DNA of 64,000 nt from Angelvirus px29 (lineage: Duplodnaviria; Heunggongvirae; Uroviricota; Caudoviricetes; Straboviridae). Shown here one piece after another: positions 10,556 to 63,967 of this stretch (within the stretch, counting starts at the first letter, position 1; each line of letters opens with the position of its first letter). The notes beneath the pieces were generated by a model. It was not told where the DNA came from. It did no database searches and saw only the letters and a program-made list of their open reading frames with translations. The stretch is from IMG/VR virus record IMGVR_UViG_2700988902_000001, positions 11,520-75,519 of that record; one strand, written 5' to 3'. The position numbers were made by a program, and so were the translations under genes.

Positions 10556-10617
10556 ATTGTTTCCTTTGTTGAATGATAAAGCGATCATACACACTTCGAA
10601 ACTGAATGTAAACAAGT

Positions 10618-10730
10618 TTGTGCGCAGCACTTCGCGTTAGCGAGAGAAGATAAAATGTCTTATATATCTTTAATGAGAATCTATCTTCTCTTCTTCTTAG
10701 GTTTCAATGAGTTAGCGGCAAGCCGCAGTG
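10618..10730 (-). ncRNA. Repeated structured intergenic element, copy A (possible small RNA or regulatory RNA/DNA structure)
   Basis: Contains the 10-11 bp stem GAGAGAAGATA/TATCTTCTCTC with a ~30 nt loop holding TATATA, then TTAGCGGCAAGCCGCAGTG..GCACA. Closing helix TTGTGC...GCACAA. Shares this architecture with copy B at ~27345-27485. Confidence 0.4.
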
Positions 10731-10744
10731 TAAGCACAATAGAT

Positions 10745-10769
10745 ACAAAAAAGCCACCCGAAGGTGGCT
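10745..10769 (-). terminator. Rho-independent terminator with UUCG tetraloop
   Basis: Minus-strand RNA GCCACC-UUCG-GGUGGC followed by U6. Confidence 0.75.
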
Positions 10770-10788
10770 AATTTATTAAGCTAATTCA

Positions 10789-15680: not shown

Positions 15681-15711
15681 GATTATTTTTACTCCAAACT
15701 TGAAATGTTAA

Positions 15712-15727
15712 AGGGCCCGAAGGCCCT
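15712..15727 (-). other. UUCG-tetraloop hairpin between nrdD and nrdG
   Basis: GGGCC-UUCG-GGCCC directly after the nrdD stop, with a partial U-tract. Confidence 0.5.
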
Positions 15728-15729
15728 TA

Positions 15730-20013: not shown

Positions 20014-20039
20014 TTTTATTCCTTGTTATAGGGGCCGAA

Positions 20040-20055
20040 GCCCCTAGTGATAGAC
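20040..20055 (-). other. UUCG-tetraloop hairpin between nrdA and nrdB
   Basis: AGGGGC-UUCG-GCCCCU, no U-tract. Likely a processing/stability hairpin. Confidence 0.45.
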
Positions 20056-27286: not shown

Positions 27287-27344
27287 GATTATCTCCTCAG
27301 TTGAATACCAGTAGTATAGACGTTTCCGATATGATGTCAACTAA

Positions 27345-27485
27345 AAAATGTCGCGCCAGCGACTGCGGAGCTAACTCATTGTAACCTAATGAGAAGAGAA
27401 GATAGATCTTCATTAAAGGTATATAAGGAACTTTATCTTCTCTTCTTTTAACATTTAGCGGCAAAGCCGCAGTGCTACGCACATT
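27345..27485 (-). ncRNA. Repeated structured intergenic element, copy B
   Basis: 13-bp stem GAGAAGAGAAGATA/TATCTTCTCTTCT with a loop holding TATATA, then TTAGCGGCAAAGCCGCAGTG..GCACA. Closing helix AAATGT...ACATTT; GACTGCGG pairs with CCGCAGTG. Confidence 0.4.
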
Positions 27486-27943: not shown

Positions 27944-27961
27944 TTATTTCTCCAATGAAAA

Positions 27962-27977
27962 AGGGCCCGAAGGCCCT
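27962..27977. terminator. Bidirectional UUCG/CGAA-tetraloop terminator
   Basis: AGGGCC-CGAA-GGCCCU flanked by T-runs on both strands. Confidence 0.6.
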
Positions 27978-27983
27978 TTGTTT

Positions 27984-28202: not shown

Positions 28203-28256
28203 TATGTTTTCCTCAGTTGTTTTGCTTCAATGAGGATATAATATCAGAACCACGGA

Positions 28257-28610
28257 TCAGTGCAAGCACTTTTTCATAAATTCGTGATGTTTTTTTCGAT
28301 TGAAGGTATATCCGAACTCAGGACGAGCCACTATACCTTCAAACAAAACGTGTTTCTTTGCTACCACTGTGACATCATAGCCGATCAGTTCGCGCTCGCC
28401 ATCAATATTCGGGACTTTGATCTCACGCTCTACCTGTTCTTGAACAACAACACCGTGAATAGTCCGGAACAAATAACCGGTAACTTTTTTCTTGATCATA
28501 ACGGGAATAGTGAAAAGCTCTTTGATTCGAATTCCTTCGATGTGACCATTAGCAATCATTTGTTGATAAACAGCCAGAGACGCTTTCCAATCTTCTTTCT
28601 TGATAAACAT
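28257..28610 (-). CDS. Hypothetical protein
   Basis: 117 aa ORF. Confidence 0.45.
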   Translation of the reverse strand: MFIKKEDWKASLAVYQQMIANGHIEGIRIKELFTIPVMIKKKVTGYLFRTIHGVVVQEQVEREIKVPNIDGERELIGYDVTVVAKKHVLFEGIVARPEFGYTFNRKKHHEFMKKCLH

Positions 28611-28847: not shown

Positions 28848-29293
28848 TAACGACCCTCACGACAAGAAATAAAACCAAAGATACCATGAGCGGATGCTTG
28901 GCTCATTGCGGAACGCCAATCGGAAACGTTACCACGAACATACTTAGAAGCAGCTTTCCAGCCATTCGCTTTCATGATGTTACCGTTTTCCAAGTCAACA
29001 AACCACACAACACTTCTGGAGCTACCGTTGTAATCAGCGCGATAAACTCGGGCATTCTTACGACCGTATTCTACACCGTAGACATTGCGATTAAGGTTTT
29101 GCTTCATGAAACATTTAACGTGGTCTTCATCATAACGCTTTTTCATGTCAGGGATAAGAATGTTCCAGTAATGATTTTCACTGAACTCATTCATTTCACG
29201 GATCATTTGCTCGATTGCTGCTTTCATGATGTTTTCCTCAATGTTTCGTTTCGATGTGGCCATAATAACAGATACAGCCACACGCGCAAGCAC
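28847..29293 (-). CDS. Hypothetical protein
   Basis: 148 aa track ORF. Likely true start MKAAIEQMIREM (~126 aa), preceded by promoter TTGCGC-N16-TATTAT at ~29240-29275. Confidence 0.5.
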   Translation of the reverse strand: MLARVAVSVIMATSKRNIEENIMKAAIEQMIREMNEFSENHYWNILIPDMKKRYDEDHVKCFMKQNLNRNVYGVEYGRKNARVYRADYNGSSRSVVWFVDLENGNIMKANGWKAASKYVRGNVSDWRSAMSQASAHGIFGFISCREGR

Positions 29294-29301
29294 TTTCTTA
29301 A

Positions 29302-30098: not shown

Positions 30099-30152
30099 AA
30101 CAATCTCCTTTTAAGATGGGAGCATTATTACATGCTCCCGGATTTTCGTCAA

Positions 30153-31070
30153 TCACTTTTTACCAACAAACCAAGCAACTACCAGAGAGAAAGTGCGATC
30201 AGCGTTTTTGCAACCGGCAGCTTCATAAGCAGCGATGAATTCCGCTTTGGTCTTGATCCCGTTTTCCCAGATTTGAACAGCGGTCTTGGACGGTTTGTGA
30301 GCAACCAACAGACCACTCGGAGCCATGTGACGCTTCGGGGTAGCGACTGCGGTATTAGCAGCAACTGGCAGAGCTTTAGGAGCTACTACAGCAACAGGAG
30401 TAACAACCTTGGCTTTAGCAATAGCAACTTTCTTCTGAGTGTCAACCACGTTAGTTTTAACAGTGTAAGGAGCGACTTCGTTATCACGGGTCGGAACAAC
30501 ATTCATTGCAGTTTTCTGAACTTCGCCAACAAAGTGAGATTTGTCCAGACGACGGGAAACGCCGTTAACAGTGGTCAAGTAGTAATGACCTGCCATCACT
30601 TTGTTATGACGAACTTGACCGAGTTTAATAGATTTACCGTGAACATTGTATTCATATTCAGCGGTGGCCAGTTCCAGTTGGTGATAAGTGTGAGCTTGAC
30701 CACCCAGCATTTCATGCAGGAACTTCCAACGAGAGTCATGACCGCTTTTTTGACGCTGAACATAATCAACAACGTGAGCGATTTCATGGCTAACTGTTTC
30801 GTCCAGCATATGCCACCAAGCTTTTTCGTTCATGATCATCATGTTGACGTTGAAACGAATGGCATACTTGCGAGAGTCAAAACCACCAGCTTTGCGACCA
30901 GTCATAACAGCTTGACCAGCGGCACGACCTTTCAGATTGAATTCAACTTTCAGATTCTTACCGATTACCAGATTCGCGTCGAAGTGTTCGTTTGCCATTT
31001 TCAGATCGTGATTGATGCGAGCGGTCAGAGCAGCGATGGCGTTTTGTTTCATTTCGATTGTAGTCAGCAT
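30153..31070 (-). CDS. SprT-like zinc metalloprotease domain protein
   Basis: 305 aa with HEIAHVVDY (HExxH) in an SprT-like context (..WWHMLDETVSHEIAH..). The C-terminal half is basic and Ala/Val-rich. Confidence 0.65.
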   Translation of the reverse strand: MLTTIEMKQNAIAALTARINHDLKMANEHFDANLVIGKNLKVEFNLKGRAAGQAVMTGRKAGGFDSRKYAIRFNVNMMIMNEKAWWHMLDETVSHEIAHVVDYVQRQKSGHDSRWKFLHEMLGGQAHTYHQLELATAEYEYNVHGKSIKLGQVRHNKVMAGHYYLTTVNGVSRRLDKSHFVGEVQKTAMNVVPTRDNEVAPYTVKTNVVDTQKKVAIAKAKVVTPVAVVAPKALPVAANTAVATPKRHMAPSGLLVAHKPSKTAVQIWENGIKTKAEFIAAYEAAGCKNADRTFSLVVAWFVGKK

Positions 31071-31109
31071 GATGTTTTCCTCAGTTGTGTATCTCGTTTC
31101 GATGTAGCT

Positions 31110-31137
31110 ATATTAACAGAAACCGGATTCTGTGCAA
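31110..31137 (-). promoter_or_regulatory. Sigma70-like early promoter + conserved leader
   Basis: Minus strand AAAGTCC-TTGCAC-N16-TAATAT-AGCTACATCGAAACGAG..GAGGAAAACATC-ATG. Confidence 0.6.
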
Positions 31138-31155
31138 GGACTTTTCCGGATAAAA

Positions 31156-31181
31156 TAAAAAAAAACCACCCGAAGGTGGTT
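31156..31181 (-). terminator. Rho-independent terminator
   Basis: ACCACC-UUCG-GGUGGU followed by U9. Confidence 0.8.
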
Positions 31182-31477
31182 TAGACTTTCTTTGTAGCCA
31201 TTTTCAGCAAGTGCCTGAGTTGTGCGCTATCAATATTCGTTTTGATTTGTTCTGCCAAATCAGCTGGGTTTAAATCTGGCAGTGCATCGGCATACGCTTG
31301 ATAAACATCATCGGCACTGTCAAACCCACGATATCGCTTGATTCGATTCTTGGTTATTGACCGCATCAAGGACGATTCGAATTGATCTCGATAGATTCCA
31401 GATTTTACCACCATTCGATCAATAAAAGCGGCGATATGATAGAGAACATACAACAAGACAAATTGAACGTATTTCAT
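31181..31477 (-). CDS. Hypothetical protein
   Basis: 98 aa with hydrophobic N-terminus. Confidence 0.4.
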   Translation of the reverse strand: MKYVQFVLLYVLYHIAAFIDRMVVKSGIYRDQFESSLMRSITKNRIKRYRGFDSADDVYQAYADALPDLNPADLAEQIKTNIDSAQLRHLLKMATKKV

Positions 31478-32824: not shown

Positions 32825-32859
32825 TTCGTTATTTGATAGAGCCATTATTGCATGGCTCT
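32825..32859 (-). promoter_or_regulatory. Early promoter with -10 inside an 8-bp-stem/6-nt-loop inverted repeat
   Basis: TTGACT-N17-AATAAT. IR AGAGCCAT-GCAATA-ATGGCTCT. Confidence 0.55.
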
Positions 32860-32879
32860 GTGCGTTAGTCAACAACTTT

Positions 32880-33167: not shown

Positions 33168-33196
33168 GATGTATTCCTCAGTTGTCTTGATTTGAT

Positions 33197-33231
33197 AGAG
33201 ACATTATCGCATGTCTCTTGGCGTTCGTCAA
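33197..33231 (-). promoter_or_regulatory. Early promoter with -10 inside an inverted repeat
   Basis: TTGACG-N17-GATAAT. IR AGAGACAT-GCGATA-ATGTCTCT (centre covaries relative to 32825). Confidence 0.55.
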
Positions 33232-33254
33232 CAACTTTCAAAAAACTTTTTCAA

Positions 33255-33968: not shown

Positions 33969-34198
33969 GTGATTTCGATGTCACATTCATCAGCGATTTG
34001 TTGCGCGGTTTCGTGTGCATCGACCAAACTATCTTCGAAATCTTCGAAAATCTCTTGACCAAAAACATCTTCGGCAGCACCAGTTGCTTTAACACCGTAA
34101 TGCTCTTCCAAAACATCTTCATCTTGATCAACAACAGCTTCATAAGAATAGATGATAACTTGAGTGATTTCTTTGGTCATGATACTTTCTTCTGTCTT
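33935..34198 (-). CDS. Hypothetical acidic protein
   Basis: Likely start MTKEITQVIIYSYEAV, Asp/Glu-rich. Promoter TTGACG-N16-TATAAT at 34202-34236. Confidence 0.4.
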   Translation of the reverse strand, partial: KTEESIMTKEITQVIIYSYEAVVDQDEDVLEEHYGVKATGAAEDVFGQEIFEDFEDSLVDAHETAQQIADECDIEITWECYKPGWAK

Positions 34199-34201
34199 GA
34201 T

Positions 34202-34236
34202 ATGGCTCATTATACAGTAACGAGCCATACCGTCAA
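34202..34236 (-). promoter_or_regulatory. Early promoter with a perfect TATAAT in the loop of an inverted repeat
   Basis: IR ATGGCTC(..TATAAT..)GAGCCAT. The arms are in everted order relative to the 32825 class. Confidence 0.55.
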
Positions 34237-34239
34237 GCA

Positions 34240-36910: not shown

Positions 36911-37522
36911 CTATATTAACAGAACAAAAATCAGATTGCAAGCACCAAAAACGAAAAAACCACCCGAAGGTGGTTTTATTTTTACCAAGATAACATCAGT
37001 CAGACTTTCGCCCATAATGCTCTCTGCTTCTTCAATCCAATCGGACGTATCCGGTGAATCATAGAATTGTTCAACGCTTTCGAAAATAGCTTGCTTTTGT
37101 CCCATTTCGGTACGTTTCTTGGATTGAAATCCAGCAGTTCCCTTTGGGTACACAGTAGCAATTTCGATCTGTCTGTTCTTCACACGACCAGCAACGCTAA
37201 TATCCATTGACTTCGAATGAAACATGAACTGACCATTTCGAATCTTTTCATCTTCGACATAATGCGCAATCTTACGATAAAACGCTTTCCAGTCTTCTGC
37301 GGATACATCATTGCGACGTTGTGCGGCGCGAGCCTGTGCATGAATAGAACTCATGAAATCATAAACACCAACTTTCATTTTGGTATTCAGTTTAGATTTC
37401 TTTGATAGTTCAAACTCCTGCTCTTTTGTCAGCTCGACAACTTGATTTTTACTTTTGTATACTTGCTTTGGTTCTGGAGCTTCTTTCACACTCTCAGCAA
37501 GAAAATTACTTAATGTCTTCAC
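36911..37522 (-). CDS. Hypothetical protein
   Basis: 203 aa track ORF. The N-terminal limit is uncertain: it overlaps a terminator hairpin, so the true start may be internal. Confidence 0.45.
   Translation of the reverse strand: MKTLSNFLAESVKEAPEPKQVYKSKNQVVELTKEQEFELSKKSKLNTKMKVGVYDFMSSIHAQARAAQRRNDVSAEDWKAFYRKIAHYVEDEKIRNGQFMFHSKSMDISVAGRVKNRQIEIATVYPKGTAGFQSKKRTEMGQKQAIFESVEQFYDSPDTSDWIEEAESIMGESLTDVILVKIKPPSGGFFVFGACNLIFVLLI
36913..36940 (-). promoter_or_regulatory. Sigma70-like early promoter + conserved leader
   Basis: TTGCAA-N16-TAATAT-AGCTCTATCGAAACGAGGAGAT-ATG. Confidence 0.6.
36958..36975. terminator. Bidirectional UUCG/CGAA-tetraloop terminator
   Basis: AACCACC-CGAA-GGUGGUU with T-runs on both sides. 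Confidence 0.7.
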
Positions 37523-46397: not shown

Positions 46398-46940
46398 TTA
46401 TTGAAAATCGGAAACTTTTGTATGATTCACGCTTACATCGCTTTCAACCGCCGCATTCATCTGAGTACAGCCTTGAAGCATCATGTATGGGTTGGTGTGC
46501 ATCAACTGAGAACCAATCACAACGCCTTGTTCGAAACCGGCTTGAACCTTAGCGGCATCATAGTTCGGATTAGATTTCGCATCTTTCAGAACTTTGGTCT
46601 TAAAGTGATTGTAGTAGCTGGAATTTGACATCCGAGCTTGAGCACACTTACTGGTGATACCAAGTCCACGACCCAGATTGAAAGAGAAGTTCTTGGCTTC
46701 ATCTTCTGCGATTCGTTGATCGATCTTGGCGTCGTTCTGGCGAGACCATTCTTTCTGCTCTGCTTCGATAGCGTTACGCGCTTCGCGTTCTTCCAGATTG
46801 ATTGTAAGCTGTTTGGCTTGTTCTTCCATGTTGTTCAGAAAGTTGATCTGACTATGACGCGCACCGATGTCGTATTCATCGGACGGGATAGAAGCACAAC
46901 CACCAAGCAGTAAACCAGCAATCAGAATAAGACGTTTCAT
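46398..46940 (-). CDS. Lipoprotein
   Basis: 180 aa. Signal peptide + lipobox MKRLILIAGLLLGGC|AS. Confidence 0.6.
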   Translation of the reverse strand: MKRLILIAGLLLGGCASIPSDEYDIGARHSQINFLNNMEEQAKQLTINLEEREARNAIEAEQKEWSRQNDAKIDQRIAEDEAKNFSFNLGRGLGITSKCAQARMSNSSYYNHFKTKVLKDAKSNPNYDAAKVQAGFEQGVVIGSQLMHTNPYMMLQGCTQMNAAVESDVSVNHTKVSDFQ

Positions 46941-47266
46941 TTGGCACCTACACAGTTAACAAAAATACGGAAATCGGACGGCGTGAGATTGATTTCAACG
47001 CGATCATTTTTTAACACAGGATTGTTGATGTTGTCAACCAGTTCCTGTTTGCTCATTTCAAAAAAGAAATGAGACGGGTCGGTTGGATTAAACGGGTCGG
47101 CAGTGTAGCTAGTGAACACAACACCGGTTTTTTGTCCAACGTGAGCGAAAGACATCAGAGAGCGATCATAACCACCTTCTTTGGTGAAAGTTTCGCACTC
47201 GGTAGTGGCAGCGGTAGCGCCGAAAGAAAACAGGGTAGCAACAAGAAACAGATTTTTCATTTTCAT
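46937..47266 (-). CDS. Secreted protein (signal peptide)
   Basis: Likely start MKMKNLFLVATLFSFGATA|ATTE. The track ORF extends further upstream into an inverted repeat. Confidence 0.5.
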   Translation of the reverse strand: MKMKNLFLVATLFSFGATAATTECETFTKEGGYDRSLMSFAHVGQKTGVVFTSYTADPFNPTDPSHFFFEMSKQELVDNINNPVLKNDRVEINLTPSDFRIFVNCVGAK

Positions 47267-47274
47267 TTTATTTT

Positions 47275-47392
47275 CGCGACCCACTAACGATAGCTCTAAG
47301 AATGCCCCCATTCACCTAGCACAAACAATTAAGTTAAGTTAAAAGTTAGTGTAAGAAAAGAGCTACCGTTAGTGGGTCCCGTCTCCAATTTG
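47275..47392. repeat. 20-bp near-perfect inverted repeat flanking a ~55-nt AT-rich spacer that contains a promoter-like sequence
   Basis: Left arm GACCCACTAACGATAGCTCT, right arm AGAGCTACCGTTAGTGGGTC (1 mismatch, G:U-compatible). Spacer holds TTGTGC on the minus strand. Confidence 0.6.
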
Positions 47393-47932
47393 TTATTTCA
47401 GATAAGAAGTAGCGGATTCAACACAACCGGAAATCATGTCTGCCGATCCGTTGATATCAACAGCATAACCACCAACGAGGGAAGAATCATCTTGAACACC
47501 GAGATAAACTTCGCCGGTTGCATACTTATCGACGTCAACCTTTACCTCATTGAAAGAAACGTATTCATACTGGAAGAATTCGTCATCAACCAATTCTTTA
47601 ACATCGGAGTTTGCAACCAGTTTGATTTGACGGGCAAACTCAGTTGCATTTGCTTTGCTCATTGCGCCAAACATCGGAGAAAGAGCTTGATTACCTTCCA
47701 GCATGTAGCCGATAACAACAACGGTATTGGATTTCAGATTCACACCGATACCGAGTTGTTCGGGACCAACTTCGCCTGTAAAGTCGATGGTACACACGTT
47801 AGCACTTCGTTTTGCTGCCAGTTGTGCTTGAACTTCGTCCATAGTCAGTTGAACAAAGTTTTCGACGGTAGCGGCATTCGCTACACAGGAAAAGCCGAAC
47901 AGCATTGCAAATACAGATTTCTTGAAATTCAT
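47393..47932 (-). CDS. Secreted protein (signal peptide)
   Basis: 179 aa. MNFKKSVFAMLFGFSCVANA|ATVEN. Confidence 0.55.
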   Translation of the reverse strand: MNFKKSVFAMLFGFSCVANAATVENFVQLTMDEVQAQLAAKRSANVCTIDFTGEVGPEQLGIGVNLKSNTVVVIGYMLEGNQALSPMFGAMSKANATEFARQIKLVANSDVKELVDDEFFQYEYVSFNEVKVDVDKYATGEVYLGVQDDSSLVGGYAVDINGSADMISGCVESATSYLK

Positions 47933-50796: not shown

Positions 50797-50820
50797 GGTG
50801 TATTCCTCTTGTCTTGATAT

Positions 50821-50855
50821 GGTTCATTATACGCTAATGAACCATGGCGTCAATC
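50821..50855 (-). promoter_or_regulatory. Early promoter with TATAAT flanked by a 10-bp inverted repeat
   Basis: TTGACG-N16-TATAAT. IR ATGGTTCATT(a gcgtat a)AATGAACCAT, a covariant of the ATGGCTC/GAGCCAT class. Confidence 0.55.
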
Positions 50856-51204
50856 ACTTTTTCAAAGCTTTTGGATCAAAATGCCAGAATCGAACTTTTT
50901 TACCGTTGTGCATGTATTGATCAAACACGATACCATGAGTCTTGCGCATATGCTCGATGTTTTCTTCGGACTGTTTGAATGCATTGCGAACGTCGCGCTC
51001 CCAAGTCTCAACCCAGCGAGTTTTAACAAACTCGTTGATCTTGTCGTCTTTTCGATTATACATGTCCAGATGTTTGTTGAAATCTGAGTTTTCGCGCAGA
51101 TAATCAACGATATCATTGTTACTGAATTTCACAAACGGAACACTTTTGATAGCCGGAATAGCATACATCAGAACGGCAGCACGTACACTCAGTTTCTTTT
51201 TCAT
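50854..51204 (-). CDS. Hypothetical protein with N-terminal signal/TM segment
   Basis: 116 aa. MKKKLSVRAAVLMYAIPAIKS.. Confidence 0.45.
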   Translation of the reverse strand: MKKKLSVRAAVLMYAIPAIKSVPFVKFSNNDIVDYLRENSDFNKHLDMYNRKDDKINEFVKTRWVETWERDVRNAFKQSEENIEHMRKTHGIVFDQYMHNGKKVRFWHFDPKALKK

Positions 51205-51906: not shown

Positions 51907-52043
51907 AATATTTTACTCAGTTGAGTTGATTCAGTAAACTAGACAGTGCTTCGGCATATGCGAGTGCCAATCCTAAAAGGATTACAACAACAATCTTACC
52001 GAATAGTTGATCTGACATAATGATTCCTCGTTTCGATGTAGCT

Positions 52044-52072
52044 ATATTAACAGAACCAATTAGGTACACAAG
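52044..52072 (-). promoter_or_regulatory. Sigma70-like early promoter + conserved leader
   Basis: AAAGTCC-TTGTGT-N17-TAATAT-AGCTACATCGAAACGAGGAATC-ATG. The 30-nt leader block is identical to the one at 31090. Confidence 0.55.
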
Positions 52073-52127
52073 GACTTTAGGTGATTTTTTAACCAATTAT
52101 TTTTCGAGACATTAAAAAACCCGCCGA

Positions 52128-53297: not shown

Positions 53298-53390
53298 GAT
53301 GTAATCCTCAGAGTTTTCGTTGAGACTGTTTCGTCTTGATGTGACTATATTATCATAGCCACGCCGACGGTCAACTACTTTTTTCGAAAA

Positions 53391-55078: not shown

Positions 55079-55106
55079 TGTTCACATTTGATGTCAACAA
55101 AAAAGC
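55079..55106 (-). promoter_or_regulatory. Sigma70-like early promoter + conserved leader
   Basis: TTGACA-N16-TAATAT-AGCTACATCGAAACGAAC.. Confidence 0.6.
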
Positions 55107-55112
55107 CACCCG

Positions 55113-55130
55113 AAGGTGGCTTTTATTTTT
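55113..55130 (-). terminator. Rho-independent terminator after nadV
   Basis: GCCACC-UUCG-GGUGGC followed by U6. Same hairpin sequence as at 10752 and 61809. Confidence 0.8.
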
Positions 55131-61724: not shown

Positions 61725-61808
61725 GATGTTTTCCTCAGTTGTGTATTTCGTTTCGATGTGTGTATAGTAACACAACGGCAGATCGACGCAAGGACTTTTA
61801 CACAAAAA

Positions 61809-61826
61809 AGCCACCCGAAGGTGGCT
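61809..61826 (-). terminator. Rho-independent terminator
   Basis: GCCACC-UUCG-GGUGGC followed by U6. Confidence 0.8.
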
Positions 61827-61831
61827 TTAGT

Positions 61832-63967
61832 TTACTTACAGGCTCTGGACAAGAATTTCTCCAAGTCTTTTCCTTTAAGTTTCTTACACATAGAATATCT
61901 ATTGTATTCTGTTGACTTCGATGGAATATACACAGAAACATATGAGTCTTCGCCATACTCAAGTTCTACGCCGTTAGCCGGAACGAACTCTTTCGGGTCA
62001 ACATACTCAAGAATTCCGTTCTTGCGCATCGGGATCATACCGTCATAGAAAGTATAAATCGCATAATCGCTAGTCTTGGCCATCTTGGCTTCGGTCAGCA
62101 TTTCACTGAACTTCATTGTTTTGCTTTCGTTCATGCTTCCCTTCATTTTGATTTGATGCTCTTTGTATTTGCTGAAAGTGTTCAGCTCAACTTCATAGCA
62201 TTTCAAGATCTTGACTTGCTTCTTCGGATCAAACACGGCCCATTCTGGTGAACGAACTGCATGATGATCGGTTGGATTCGGACAACCAGCAGAACGATAA
62301 TCTTTTCTGCGCTCACCAAGAATGGTTTCCATTTCGAACACATAACCACGAGTCCCAGCATGACGACCATAACCATCGTTACTCACGTATTGCAAAATCT
62401 TATCGATTTTGTTACTAAAGTAAAGACCATCGCCAAGCATACGACCAACAACCGATTTATCCTTACTCGGGATGATCTTGAAACCATAGCGAAGAACCAT
62501 GTTAGCAGCGATACCACCAGTACCGTGGAAAGCTGGCACAATTTGTTCCAGTTTGCCAATAGATTCTTGAGCTTTCAAGAACTCGTTATATTCTGGATAA
62601 GACAAGTTAACAGTGAAAGACTTGTGAATCAATGGGTAAGTGTTACCGTGTTTGCCTGCATAGTAGGTATCAACCAGATGCTTACCAATCAAATATTTCT
62701 GTTCGTCGCTGATATTGTCATCGCTAACAGCACAAGGCGGAACAACTGTGCTTGAATCAGCAGCAGATTCAACACGACGAATATAATCACTAAAGTTTTC
62801 GCCTTTCTTAGCGCGAATCTTAGCAGCTTTTACCAGTTCGTCTGGGTCAATCTCGTTAAACTCGAACATCTTCTTAACGCGACGCATATCAGGGGTATCA
62901 AACATGTTGATCGGACCACCAGATACTTGGTTATAGATGAACTTAACACCAGTCAAAGTATTGCGAACTTTGGTCTTGTAATAAGTTTCCAGTTCTTCAA
63001 AGAATGCGTTAGCAACCACTTCATCTTCTTTCATACCATTATAAATGATATCAACCAGAGTTTGTTGTGCTTTCGCTTTATCATCACGACGTCTAATACC
63101 GGTCAGATTTTCTTTGTTCATGAACTTAAATCCGAATTCGACCTCAAGAGCCATAAACTTAGCTGATGATTTTTCATCGAAATCAATCTTGTTGATGAAG
63201 TCATATGTAAAGTCACCAACATACTGTGCGTCCATGTCATCGCCAAAGTGCTCATATGCTGCAAGCAACATCGGAACACGAACGTGTGGTTCACATTGAC
63301 CAATACGAGACACAAAGCGTCTAACGCCATCTTTTGTTTTGATGTTATTAAGCAAGAAATTAACACGCTCTTCTACCTGAGTTTCTGTTGTAGCAGAGTC
63401 AAGATAGGTCGGCATCAGTTGCATAGCGTAATGCACTTCGGCAGGATTATCAATCTTCTGCAAAATCATTTCTTGAATTTCTTTGGTCACTTCTGGGAAC
63501 TTAGTCATTGACAGTTTCAGCGCCTCAAGCGGCGGATAATTCACGCTGTTCAGTTTTGTATAACGAACAACTGCCTTGGCCAATTGAGCAACTGCAATAG
63601 ACGGCATGAAACGCAATGGAATATGCGTCATTTCATTTGGTTTTGCGCCTGCGGTCATCTTGTATTCATAAACGAATTCGGTATCATCAAGATACATTTT
63701 CTTGAGCCAATATTCGGAAATGAAATCAAAGTTAGCACCGGTAATATAATCGCGAGTCAGATAAACAACCATATTGCGGAACTTGTTAATCGGCTCGGTA
63801 CCCTTGCCCCATGTCGGCAGACCCGGGATTGTTGGGTAAATCTTGGCAATCTCTTCGTTACAGACTTTAACCAATGTGGCTTGTGCCTTGGTATTGGTGA
63901 AAATATCAAACTCAGAACCAAACAGTGGGTTCTGTTTCATGTCCGTGCCTTGATGTCCCATAAGCAC
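61832..63967 (-). CDS. Large protein with C-terminal PARP-like (H-Y-E class) ADP-ribosyltransferase domain
   Basis: 711 aa. Near the C-terminus ..VPAFHGTGGIAANMVLRYGFKIIP..MLGDGLYFSNKIDKILQYVS..RGYVFEMETILGE matches PARP motifs H-G-S/T, G-x-G-h-Y-F, S..Y and a catalytic Glu. Confidence 0.55.
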   Translation of the reverse strand: MLMGHQGTDMKQNPLFGSEFDIFTNTKAQATLVKVCNEEIAKIYPTIPGLPTWGKGTEPINKFRNMVVYLTRDYITGANFDFISEYWLKKMYLDDTEFVYEYKMTAGAKPNEMTHIPLRFMPSIAVAQLAKAVVRYTKLNSVNYPPLEALKLSMTKFPEVTKEIQEMILQKIDNPAEVHYAMQLMPTYLDSATTETQVEERVNFLLNNIKTKDGVRRFVSRIGQCEPHVRVPMLLAAYEHFGDDMDAQYVGDFTYDFINKIDFDEKSSAKFMALEVEFGFKFMNKENLTGIRRRDDKAKAQQTLVDIIYNGMKEDEVVANAFFEELETYYKTKVRNTLTGVKFIYNQVSGGPINMFDTPDMRRVKKMFEFNEIDPDELVKAAKIRAKKGENFSDYIRRVESAADSSTVVPPCAVSDDNISDEQKYLIGKHLVDTYYAGKHGNTYPLIHKSFTVNLSYPEYNEFLKAQESIGKLEQIVPAFHGTGGIAANMVLRYGFKIIPSKDKSVVGRMLGDGLYFSNKIDKILQYVSNDGYGRHAGTRGYVFEMETILGERRKDYRSAGCPNPTDHHAVRSPEWAVFDPKKQVKILKCYEVELNTFSKYKEHQIKMKGSMNESKTMKFSEMLTEAKMAKTSDYAIYTFYDGMIPMRKNGILEYVDPKEFVPANGVELEYGEDSYVSVYIPSKSTEYNRYSMCKKLKGKDLEKFLSRACK

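Follow-up and report, generated by a model that had tools for sequence, protein, structure and literature searches.

Palindromic intergenic repeats at seven conserved sites of Aeh1-like Aeromonas T4-type phages, candidate IHF-bound boundary elements

The window analysed here, a 64,000-nt stretch of the T4-like Aeromonas phage PX29, carries upstream of gp47 a structured intergenic element that recurs further along the sequence, and the question is what kind of element it is and at which level, RNA or DNA, it would act. The first-pass annotation had described two copies, each with an AG-rich/CT-rich stem around an AT-rich loop, in intergenic gaps, which holds for both copy A (about 10617-10741) and copy B (27350-27482). 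The stems were recovered in A (10682-10693 with 10642-10652) and in B (27392-27404 with 27434-27446), the loop between them measures about 29 nt and contains TATATAAG, and both copies carry the near-identical block TTAGCGGCAA(A)GCCGCAGTG. The count of two, by contrast, was too low. A and B are two of seven members in the 222-kb PX29 genome of a family of imperfect palindromes of 125-173 bp, typically about 140 bases long. The features around copy A are as follows.

10584..10612, minus strand: sigma-70-type early promoter for gp47, TTTACA-17-TATGAT, 10/12 matches
~10617..10741, minus strand: copy A, the palindromic element of site A upstream of gp47 (nhmmer 115 bits, E = 2e-34)
10620..10630, minus strand: terminal mini-hairpin GTGC-tgc-GCAC, containing the 'TTGTGC' half-helix of the first-pass annotation
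10642..10693, minus strand: AT-rich dyad, with 5' arm GAAGAGAAGATA (10682-10693), 29-nt centre (10653-10681) and 3' arm TATCTTCTCTC (10642-10652)
10702..10714, minus strand: IHF-consensus-like box TAACTCATTGAAA, 1 mismatch to TAAnnnnTTGATW
10715..10730, minus strand: GC-rich arm, CACTGCG with mini-hairpin GCGGC-tt-GCCGC
10746..10769, minus strand: intrinsic terminator-like hairpin AGCCACC-TTCG-GGTGGCT with T-run, directly upstream of copy A

Copy A has its F orientation, in which the IHF-like box is followed by the centre TCATTAAAG..TATAAG, on the minus strand. The gp47 early promoter lies directly downstream of it and outside the repeat, and the element is thus sandwiched between a terminator and the next promoter, a layout shared by Aeh1, avDM12 and phiAS5, whose copy A orthologues also lie upstream of gp47. 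The features around copy B are given below.

27313..27340, minus strand: sigma-70-type early promoter, TTGACA-16-TATACT, of a small downstream ORF, 11/12 matches
27350..27482, plus strand: copy B, the palindromic element of site B (146 bits), antisense to the flanking minus-strand genes
27350..27367, plus strand: left GC-rich arm, mini-hairpin GTCGC-gcca-GCGAC and ACTGCG
27372..27384, plus strand: IHF-consensus-like box TAACTCATTGTAA, 2 mismatches, CAA....TTA kept
27392..27446, plus strand: AT-rich dyad, with arm AGAAGAGAAGATA (27392-27404), 29-nt centre GATCTTCATTAAAGGTATATAAGGAACTT and arm TATCTTCTCTTCT (27434-27446)
27458..27482, plus strand: right GC-rich arm, GCGGC-aaa-GCCGC, CGCAGT (pairing with ACTGCG) and terminal hairpin GTGC-tac-GCAC

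Copy B has its F orientation on the plus strand. Its orthologues in Aeh1 and Ah1 are oriented alike, and that of phiAS5 is flipped. The promoter of the small ORF adjoins the copy, again outside the repeat, and the left mini-hairpin, read on the minus strand, is followed by ATTTTTT in a terminator-like arrangement. Folding of copy B far exceeded that of shuffled sequences on both strands (RNA z = -4.6; DNA z = -3.9 and -5.0), and that of copy A did so weakly (RNA z = -2.05 and -1.27; DNA about -1.5).

Comparison of the two copies revealed that positions 10643-10716 of A are the reverse complement of positions 27370-27443 of B (74 nt, 88%). Because this central segment is inverted, the GC-rich block that they share is on the same side as the IHF box in A but on the other side in B; reverse-complemented, the GC-rich arm of A and the right arm of B are identical at 19/20 positions. 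The collinear alignment proposed for A and B was partly wrong, and the covarying closing helix (TTGTGC/GCACAA in A, AAATGT/ACATTT in B) arose from comparing flanks that are not homologous. This helix is missing from the RNAalifold consensus of 10 copies and from the copy A orthologues of Aeh1, avDM12 and phiAS5, and its half-helices GTGC and GCAC in A are parts of the local mini-hairpin GTGC-tgc-GCAC. The additional ACTGCG/CGCAGT helix does exist, but it is invariant and hence uninformative on covariation.

Family members number seven in PX29, seven in phiAS5, eight in Aeh1 and at least seven in Ah1, and they occupy seven intergenic positions (sites A to G) common to these phages, which span three genera. 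All seven sites are filled in PX29, Aeh1 and phiAS5, and sites B-G, the six recovered, are filled in Ah1; no empty site and no presence/absence polymorphism was seen among the genomes examined, and site D carries a tandem duplication in Aeh1 and Ah1. Some sites fall between core genes, namely between gp54 and gp26, upstream of gp15 and upstream of gp47. The copies are evenly spaced at about 32 kb (coefficient of variation 0.20-0.28, P ~0.0003-0.002), where the three genomes are syntenic and count as one independent observation. Every copy adjoins an early or late promoter that transcribes away from the element; copies D, E and F adjoin late promoters with the clade consensus CTAAATA (PMC1524935), not early ones. 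Copy F sits in a divergent region, flanked at about 20 nt by the start of p208 and, on its other side, directly by the gp15 late promoter, and at sites B and E the element begins at the upstream stop codon or a few nucleotides from it. Orientation varies: phiAS5 keeps the element at site B, and Aeh1 and Ah1 keep it at site G, in flipped form. The F strand is the sense strand at 5/7 sites in PX29 and at 6/7 in phiAS5, the elements at sites B and C of PX29 being antisense to the flanking genes.

A strict core-pattern search of IMG/VR matched only genomes of Ah1, Aeh1 and phiAS5, and the same pattern had no match in either the 185,579 bacterial species genomes searched or the metagenome collection. 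Three IMG/VR matches to a looser palindrome pattern (L005-L007) were not family members. In the literature open without subscription, we found no earlier description of these repeats in Aeh1, PX29 or phiAS5.

Each element follows one plan: GC-rich arms with mini-hairpins, an AT-rich 13-bp stem, a partly palindromic 29-nt centre and a conserved box. The centre has 25-30% GC and the arms have 50-69%, against 42% for the genome, and TATATAAG in the centre is unique to the seven family members in PX29. Mini-palindromes occur at both ends in 26/30 copies, a few copies lacking a 4-bp hairpin on one side, and their sequences differ between copies yet remain perfectly self-complementary. The GC-rich arms are furthermore imperfect inverted repeats of each other, for example ACTGCG.AGCTAA with TTAGC..CGCAGT. 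The conserved box matches the IHF consensus TAAnnnnTTGATW (PMC10380432) perfectly in 21 of the 30 copies and with at most one mismatch in 27; in PX29 itself it is perfect in only 2/7 copies, and those of the window are degenerate (one mismatch in A, two in B). In the table of PMC6907758, as extracted, the H-NS and IHF motifs are swapped. The box stands at one constant position, 9 nt from the dyad with gapless spacing in 29/30 copies, whereas the spacer on the other side of the dyad varies from 0 to about 50 nt. Its invariant columns are the consensus positions and its variable columns 7-9 are N positions; in phiAS5 copy A the left block differs, but TAAnnnnCTGATT is kept at the same distance from the dyad. 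The chance of a perfect 13-mer match in one ancestral 140-bp element is about 0.004, or a few percent after correction for the 5-10 or so motifs tried. No IHF site was seen by eye within the central 29 nt, the match falling in the left conserved block, and a late promoter in the centre was rejected, TATATAAG being unlike the CTAAATA consensus.

The pairing is conserved across the family. Paired cells amounted to 93.9%, against 44-66% when partner columns were slid, four pairs showed double changes, and the RNAalifold consensus of 10 copies agreed with the pairing. The compensatory changes are located in the inner stem, the loop helix and the terminal mini-hairpins, and they go back to no more than about 3-4 independent events, each of which homogenisation has fixed across the genome. 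Paralogues within a genome share 0.85-0.91 identity compared with 0.71-0.78 for orthologues, and orthologous sites are no closer in sequence than non-orthologous ones, indicating that the copies evolve in concert; the family thus offers a clean natural case of concerted evolution of dispersed repeats at fixed loci. Wobbles are one-sided: 7 column pairs have G.T on the F strand and 3 have A.C. As RNA, the F strand is more stable than the R strand in 24/30 copies, a bias that tracks the element's own orientation and not the direction of transcription. Conservation is highest in unpaired blocks, which match a DNA-binding consensus. A DNA cruciform, symmetric protein binding and arm-to-arm gene conversion would each likewise produce covariation in a palindrome; such covariation is no hallmark of RNA. 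What stands of the initial proposal is a repeated, structured intergenic element under constraint.

A DNA landmark is a more probable reading of the element than a small RNA. Our tentative choice among the explanations considered is a clade-specific, cis-acting DNA boundary element, bound by IHF and resembling BIME-1/RIP, at seven evenly spaced junctions of gene ends and promoters in Aeh1-like Aeromonas T4-type phages. Host IHF would bind the conserved TAAnnnnTTGATW box, fixed 9 nt from an AT-rich dyad that is clamped by GC-rich mini-palindromes; the IHF bend and supercoiling could then lead to local melting or hairpin extrusion, or at least to a stable nucleoprotein knot. Such a structure would mark and insulate the boundary of transcription units or supercoil domains, as proposed for E. 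coli BIME-1/RIP, while ectopic gene conversion in a highly recombinogenic phage would keep the copies alike and recombination between the inverted arms would occasionally flip the core. IHF binding, action at the DNA level and the insulator role are what we infer from sequence. Pointing this way are the occupation of the same seven sites in three genera, the tolerance of orientation flips and of varied contexts (terminator and promoter at site A, divergent promoters at copy F), and the IHF consensus at a constant position and dyad spacing. The AT-rich centre between GC-rich arms, the even spacing, the self-complementary mini-palindromes, the concerted evolution and the BIME-1 precedent (PMC3333891; PMC6907758) argue for it as well. 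Against it, the one-strand wobble bias is unpredicted by a purely duplex DNA site, extrusion of a cruciform from duplex DNA is kinetically unfavourable with a centre of 29 nt, and the box is degenerate in A and B and perfect in just two PX29 copies. Phages of the PX29 clade may also carry DNA modification, possibly affecting the binding of host proteins (PMC8056088).

In BIME-1, a pair of inverted REPs is joined by a linker that carries an IHF site, and BIMEs serve as topological insulators (PMC3333891; PMC6907758). BIME-1/RIP (RIB) of E. coli and the phage element are both extragenic, about 100-150 bp long and found at the 3' ends of transcription units; in both, two inverted GC-rich palindromic units flank a linker carrying an IHF consensus, stem bases vary but stay complementary, and either orientation occurs. 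The roles proposed for BIME-1/RIP are DNA structuring or topological insulation and functions at mRNA 3' ends (PMC3333891; PMC6907758). Unlike REPs, however, the phage element has no REP sequence homology and lacks a GTAG at the palindrome foot; GTA(G) is confined to the loops of some mini-hairpins (GCGGC-gta-GCCGC) and does not occur 5' of the foot, and the PX29 annotation contains no RAYT/TnpA-REP gene. It also differs from BIME-1 in having 7-8 copies at fixed, even phage sites rather than hundreds in a bacterial chromosome, in a linker that adds the AT-rich 13-bp dyad with its 29-nt centre, and in complete homogenisation within a genome. If the elements are IHF-bound boundaries, they would be a phage counterpart of bacterial BIME/RIP, and host nucleoid proteins would organise the genome of a large lytic phage. 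Each genome with the family supplies seven sites that are defined by sequence, conserved in position and equipped with a predicted site for a host factor, which makes this directly testable.

Of the four candidates first put forward, a replication-origin-like site and a recombination hotspot are viable, whereas a small RNA and a cis-regulatory leader fit poorly. The RNA-centred candidates fit poorly because the element is flipped in place (B in phiAS5; G in Aeh1 and Ah1) and lies antisense at B and C in PX29, because at site A it stands between a terminator and the next promoter in every genome, because copy F lies in a divergent promoter region, because the best-conserved parts are unpaired and match a DNA-binding consensus, and because Rfam has no match. 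In the Rfam search, the whole window gave 0 matches at the gathering score, and with E up to 10 only sub-threshold generic hairpins came up, among them miRNA precursors scoring 14-21 bits where the cut-offs are 90-103. It is rather unlikely that the element acts in read-through mRNA as a long irregular hairpin at the upstream gene's 3' end, in the manner of T7 RNase III sites or of REP in RNA form, and provides a site of RNase III-type processing, a 3' stabiliser or a factor-independent terminator/insulator. The conserved pairing with its four double-change pairs and the agreement with RNAalifold would suit such a role, as would the prevalence of G.U among the wobbles of the F strand, which is sense at most sites. 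Also in its favour, the F strand has stops in all three frames at GCTAACTCATTGA...TAG, the elements at B and E begin at or near the upstream stop codon, and the left mini-hairpin of B with its T-run scores as a terminator. The antisense and flipped copies have, however, been kept without loss, the stability bias follows the element rather than transcription, a canonical terminator already precedes the element at site A, conservation peaks in unpaired blocks that fit a DNA-binding consensus, the independent compensatory events are few, and Rfam gives no match. T7 RNase III sites are mutually similar intergenic hairpins with an internal loop, located between phage genes. They measure about 50-60 nt, keep one orientation to transcription and are not known to carry a conserved protein-binding DNA consensus. 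The phage element has an irregular long hairpin, its orientation relative to transcription varies, and one copy lies behind a terminator. An independent family of small-RNA genes, each with its own promoter and terminator, is highly improbable. An internal sigma-70-like TTGAnn-18-TA(G/A)AT(T/C) with constant spacing and the better folding of the F strand speak for it, but the -10-like hexamer is TAGATC in 6/7 PX29 copies, without the key final T, a transcript from this promoter would miss the 5' arm and so have no conserved hairpin, no consistent terminator follows, and Rfam again gives no match.

Present data fit the insulator role and a role in replication or recombination alike. We consider it rather unlikely that the elements are replication-origin or recombination-initiation sites, at which an IHF bend, an AT-rich unwinding element and a promoter would admit the replisome, or a hairpin in single-stranded DNA would be nicked or cleaved, for instance by gp46/47, endonuclease VII or a site-specific protein; the breaks would prime recombination-dependent replication, and their repair would homogenise and flip the copies. 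The seven dispersed, evenly spaced sites recall the 5-7 dispersed origins of T4, each dependent on a nearby early, middle or late promoter and a DNA-unwinding element (PMC3016281), and oriC likewise has its unwinding element beside an IHF site (PMC10380432). The AT-rich core between GC clamps and the early or late promoter at every copy fit as well; concerted evolution, mosaic arms, the hypervariable spacer and in-place flips are expected from repeated break repair, and the one-strand wobble bias suits a single-stranded DNA hairpin. On the other hand, the promoters fire outward, and no convincing inward one was found at the elements, whereas the transcripts of T4 oriF/oriG enter the unwinding element. 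Concerted evolution is, besides, expected for any dispersed repeat of at least 50 bp in a T4-type phage (PMC2839356). The T4 origins (oriA-oriG), although likewise several dispersed sites with a promoter beside each and an AT-rich unwinding-type segment (PMC3016281), have no common motif and are not palindromes, which leaves no argument from homology. Although T4-type phages serve as a model of replication, recombination and transcription, no cis-acting DNA motif common to their origins or domain boundaries is known (PMC3016281). In E. coli oriC, as predicted here, the IHF site adjoins the unwinding-type segment (PMC10380432), but the phage element has no DnaA boxes or iterons. A more specific version, which we regard as quite unlikely, holds that Aeh1-like phages initiate replication or recombination-dependent replication at the seven elements as a shared set of sites, or equally that the elements load the sliding clamp, which activates late promoters. 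IHF would bend the DNA by the AT-rich dyad, the dyad would be opened or nicked on one strand, and repair of these programmed lesions would produce the concerted evolution, flips and mosaic arms. The opening or nicking agent could be p208, a clade-specific, CapR-like protein derived from homing endonucleases, whose gene adjoins copy F and occurs in exactly the element-bearing phages. A protein database search with p208 returned only three clade-restricted clusters, a PDB sequence search returned no match, and its AlphaFold model has a pLDDT of 41. If this holds, T4-type phages would gain their first conserved origin or entry motif that is defined at the sequence level. Should the elements be sites of initiation or breakage, the choice of origin and recombination-dependent replication would become tractable in the clade.

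It is very unlikely that the repeats are a domesticated or decaying MITE-like or homing-associated remnant that gene conversion maintains without function for the phage. The inverted terminal arms, dispersed copies in both orientations, mosaic arm types and the tandem duplication at site D would agree with such an origin, and the motif in the left flanks of copies C, D and G shares homology with the p208 ribosome-binding site and start. Set against this, no genome examined in the three genera has an empty site, there is no target-site duplication (the longest word common to the flanks of any PX29 copy is 3-4 nt and not duplication-positioned), the PX29 annotation tables list no transposase, and neither the bacterial species genomes nor the metagenome collection contain the core pattern; even spacing and invariant internal spacing would be unexpected of junk DNA. 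Correia (NEMIS) elements of Neisseria and ERIC/IRU of enterobacteria are imperfect intergenic palindromes of about 100-155 bp found in both orientations, and Correia elements have a central IHF site, outward promoters and RNase III processing once transcribed. Those families are high-copy and MITE-like with variable occupancy, and Correia makes a TA duplication, whereas the phage element has neither duplication nor occupancy polymorphism.

Among the repeats of T4-type genomes, promoter-early stem-loop (PeSL) cassettes are similar in being repeated intergenic hairpins by promoters, with copies that serve as substrates of homologous recombination (PMC2839356; PMC4122927). PeSLs, however, are small and contain the sigma-70 promoter within the repeat, whereas the present element measures 125-173 bp and has its promoter, early or late, outside. 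They are also numerous, lie in hyperplastic regions and mark variable gene content, in contrast to seven conserved sites, some of them between core genes. PeSL-like motifs are also present in the window.

Finally, a coding role was considered for a 61-aa ORF across copy B and for Aeh1fORF01c across its orthologue, and was rejected since the frame is not conserved among copies: the R-strand frame is open in PX29 but broken in phiAS5 A, B and D and in Aeh1 D2, and no start codon is common to the copies. The apparently divergent copy B of AsFcp_4 is a run of N and not biology. The AsFcp_1 record stops within the centre of copy B, and its ends are garbled; the palindrome most likely interrupted the assembly there. 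For practical work, the elements are places where assemblies break or become corrupted and where spurious CDSs are called.

Both query regions were 100% identical to Aeromonas phage PX29 (GU396103 / NC_023688; Straboviridae, Angelvirus), in which the genome coordinate equals the window coordinate plus 11519. Copy A of the palindromic intergenic element lies between a-gt.4 and gp47 and copy B between two small hypothetical genes, with all flanking genes on the minus strand. Both copies contained the stems, AT-rich centre and common GC-rich block that the first-pass annotation described. The two had also been aligned collinearly on the plus strand, but a repeat search of the window identified 10643-10716 and 27370-27443 as reverse complements (74 nt, 88%), so that collinearity applies only to the palindromic stems and one GC-rich arm. 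This arm, CACTGCGGCTT(T)GCCGCTAA, lies on opposite sides of the core in copies A and B. On both strands and with both parameter sets, copy B folded much better than its shuffles; the gain for copy A was marginal. The closing helix thought to covary between them was not family-wide: an RNAalifold consensus built on ten copies lacked it, as did the A-site orthologues in other phages.

The whole PX29 genome was assembled from the window and four fetched stretches, and BLAST, a regular expression and nhmmer agreed on exactly seven copies, all intergenic, at 22.2, 38.9, 77.0, 106.1, 135.5, 175.5 and 219.2 kb (genome coordinates). The element was detected by blastn in only 13 of 50,697 phage records, all from Aeh1-like Aeromonas phages (PX29, AsFcp_1, AsFcp_2, AsFcp_4, Aeh1, Ah1, avDM12-TAAL, phiAS5 and phiWae14). 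Whole genomes carried eight copies in Aeh1 and seven in phiAS5, and IMG/VR loci yielded seven for Ah1. The strict core pattern had zero matches in 185,579 bacterial and archaeal species (one genome each) and in the metagenome collection. In the F orientation, with the IHF box before the centre, the parts are as follows.

Parts of the element, F orientation
Part 1: GC-rich arm with mini-hairpin, e.g. GTCGC-gcca-GCGAC, then ACTGCG
Part 2: GC-TAAnnnnTTGATW
Part 3: 9-nt spacer
Part 4: purine-rich arm, ~13 nt
Part 5: centre, 29 nt, AT-rich and partly palindromic, TCATTAAAG...TATAAGA
Part 6: pyrimidine-rich arm
Part 7: spacer, 0 to ~50 nt
Part 8: GC-rich arm with TAGC, mini-hairpin (e.g. GCGGC-tac-GCCGC), CGCAGT and terminal hairpin

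From GCTAAC through the end of the 3' arm, 29 of 30 copies measured exactly 80 nt without gaps. GC content was 25-30% in the centre and 50-69% in the arms, against 42% for the genome. The conserved unpaired block matched the IHF consensus TAAnnnnTTGATW (PMC10380432) perfectly in 21 of 30 copies, with one mismatch in six and two in two; its invariant columns were the consensus positions and its variable columns the N positions. Window copies A and B have imperfect boxes. The aberrant A copy of phiAS5 has a different left block, yet retains TAAGTCGCTGATT at the unchanged distance from the dyad. In Aeh1, 8 of the 30 perfect consensus matches genome-wide fell inside elements, which make up ~0.5% of the genome. 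The chance of such a match is ~0.004, counted per family because the copies are homologous and before correction for the several motifs tried. DNA in the Aeh1-like clade may be modified (PMC8056088), a caveat on the IHF reading.

Across 25 gapless cores the 17-pair structure was 93.9% paired, compared with 44-66% when partner columns were slid, and none of 500 shuffles reached the observed score. Both sides had changed at four pairs, 29:71 (C:G to G:C), 32:68 (A:U to G:C), 40:60 and 23:77; these double changes set PX29 apart from the other genomes and thus amount to only ~3-4 events that each became fixed throughout the copies of a genome. Terminal mini-hairpins varied partly within one genome (GCGCC/GGCGC and GCGGC/GCCGC in phiAS5), always with perfectly complementary stems. 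Paralogues within a genome shared 85-91% identity in the core and 90-96% in the stem-loop, copies from different genera 71-78%, and orthologous sites were no more similar than non-orthologous ones. Since T4-type recombination needs <50 bp of homology (PMC2839356), gene conversion between copies would be the simplest cause of this concerted evolution. Recombination between inverted arms would explain why elements flipped in place and how the B arm came to lie on the opposite side in A.

The seven occupied gaps were identical across all three genera.

Element sites
Site A: upstream of gp47
Site B: near the gp49 region
Gap between the PARP-like giant ORF and the ADP-ribosylglycohydrolase gene
Site D: gp54/gp26 gap, two tandem copies in Aeh1 and Ah1
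Site F: p208/gp15 gap
pseT.2/vs.1 gap
Downstream of nudE, near gp52

The tandem copies at gp54/gp26 are ~170 bp apart (Aeh1 119933-120227, L015 19933-20227; Ah1 L030 3959-4286; L numbers denote fetched stretches with their own coordinates), and PX29 and phiAS5 have a single copy there. Gaps between copies were 17-44 kb, with a coefficient of variation of 0.20-0.28 matched by 0.03-0.2% of random placements; even spacing counts as one observation because the genomes are syntenic. Orientation was kept at five sites; phiAS5 has the reverse at B, and Aeh1 and Ah1 have it at G.

Every copy has a gene end on one side and a promoter on the other. Copy A has a canonical terminator before it and TTTACA-17-TATGAT after it, copy B is followed by TTGACA-16-TATACT, and the terminal hairpin of copy G overlaps TTGACA-16/17-TAATAAT. 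CTAAATA, the late-promoter consensus of the clade (PMC1524935), adjoins D, E and F in PX29 and phiAS5, and E and F in Aeh1 and Ah1. Copy F occupies a divergent region, its left arm ~20 nt from the p208 start. Two families of near-identical intergenic terminator hairpins were also seen.

Terminator families (window)
10745-10776 (directly upstream of copy A), 31157-31188, 36951-36982, 55097-55128, 61802-61833: AAAAAAGCCACC-CGAA-GGTGGCT, five copies, bidirectional in form
15704-15728, 20022-20046, 27954-27978: GGGCC-CGAA-GGCCC, three copies

The tolerated orientation flips, the terminator-element-promoter order at A, the divergent placement of copy F, the even spacing and the fixed distance from a protein-binding consensus to the dyad point to an element acting at the DNA level. 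The same is suggested by the lack of any Rfam match, a small RNA family having been among the earlier proposals, and by the lack of a conserved ORF across the copies. Read-through transcripts may also carry an RNA-level function, which could exist alongside a DNA role, as for REP. On the F strand the wobbles are mainly G.T, and RNA of that strand is stabler in 24 of 30 copies, a bias that tracks the element's own orientation and not the direction of flanking genes. A role as replication origin or recombination entry is a serious rival. The closest known architecture is that of BIME-1/RIP in E. coli, with two inverted GC-rich palindromic units, an IHF-binding linker and a position at transcription-unit 3' ends, for which insulator and structuring roles have been proposed. 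The element differs in sequence and RAYT association and is therefore an analogue, not a member. From the promoter-early stem-loops (PeSLs), a known repeat class of T4-type phages, it differs in size, content, number and distribution.

A candidate partner, by association only, is encoded beside copy F, outside the window.
PX29 134855-135469 (L003 9956-10570), minus strand: p208, abutting copy F; Cys-rich, 204 aa

All three clusters of p208 homologues gave a sub-threshold match to the Pfam CapR domain (22 bits, cut-off 24.2), p208 matched PHROG endonuclease families (E = 1e-11 and 3e-6), and its strong matches were exactly the 13 element-carrying records. CapR, a DNA-binding domain domesticated from a homing endonuclease, represses a promoter (PMC8096241), and p208 could act as a DNA-binding partner or be the relic of a homing-endonuclease gene. 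The p208 structure model could not be used. Next to the left arm of copies C, D and G in PX29 lies a ~27-nt motif (R strand TTCCTAGGAGAGTTTACTATTTGTACC; e.g. L001 31203-31240, L004 656-690) homologous to the p208 ribosome-binding site and start codon at copy F (TTTCTAGGTGAGTATACTATATGAAC), which suggests that element copies were once duplicated jointly with the p208 5' end.

Three annotated Aeh1 CDSs, Aeh1fORF01c, Aeh1hmmORF04c and Aeh1fORF03c, overlap copies B, C and G (L013 49489-49671; L016 37049-37153; L017 30599-30766) and probably reflect spurious gene calling; copy F contains the annotated start of phiAS5_ORF0008. Both ends of the AsFcp_1 GenBank record fall, garbled, inside the copy B centre (L040 1-60, L041 290-413), and AsFcp_4 has an N run in copy B (L008 about 480-500). 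In both records the assembly most likely failed at the palindrome, a physical discontinuity there being less likely.

Other repeats in the window
47275-47381: 23-bp inverted repeat (91% complementary), 61-nt spacer, between minus-strand ORFs 46937-47311 and 47393-47932
30106-30159, 32826-32879, 33185-33238, 34186-34239, 50803-50856, minus strand: early-promoter motif repeats
28218-28272, 29242-29296, 31090-31144, 52024-52078, 53327-53381, 61744-61798, minus strand: further early-promoter motif repeats

The inverted repeat is unrelated in sequence to the palindromic element; its minus-strand RNA folds at -51 kcal/mol (z = -7.8), and 0 of 200 shuffles folded as well. The early-promoter motifs form families of repeats (D1-D14 of the repeat search), in several of which a stem-loop overlaps the -10 region, e.g. 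TTGAC..AGAGCCATgcaataATGGCTCT, and look like PeSL-type promoter/stem-loop cassettes.
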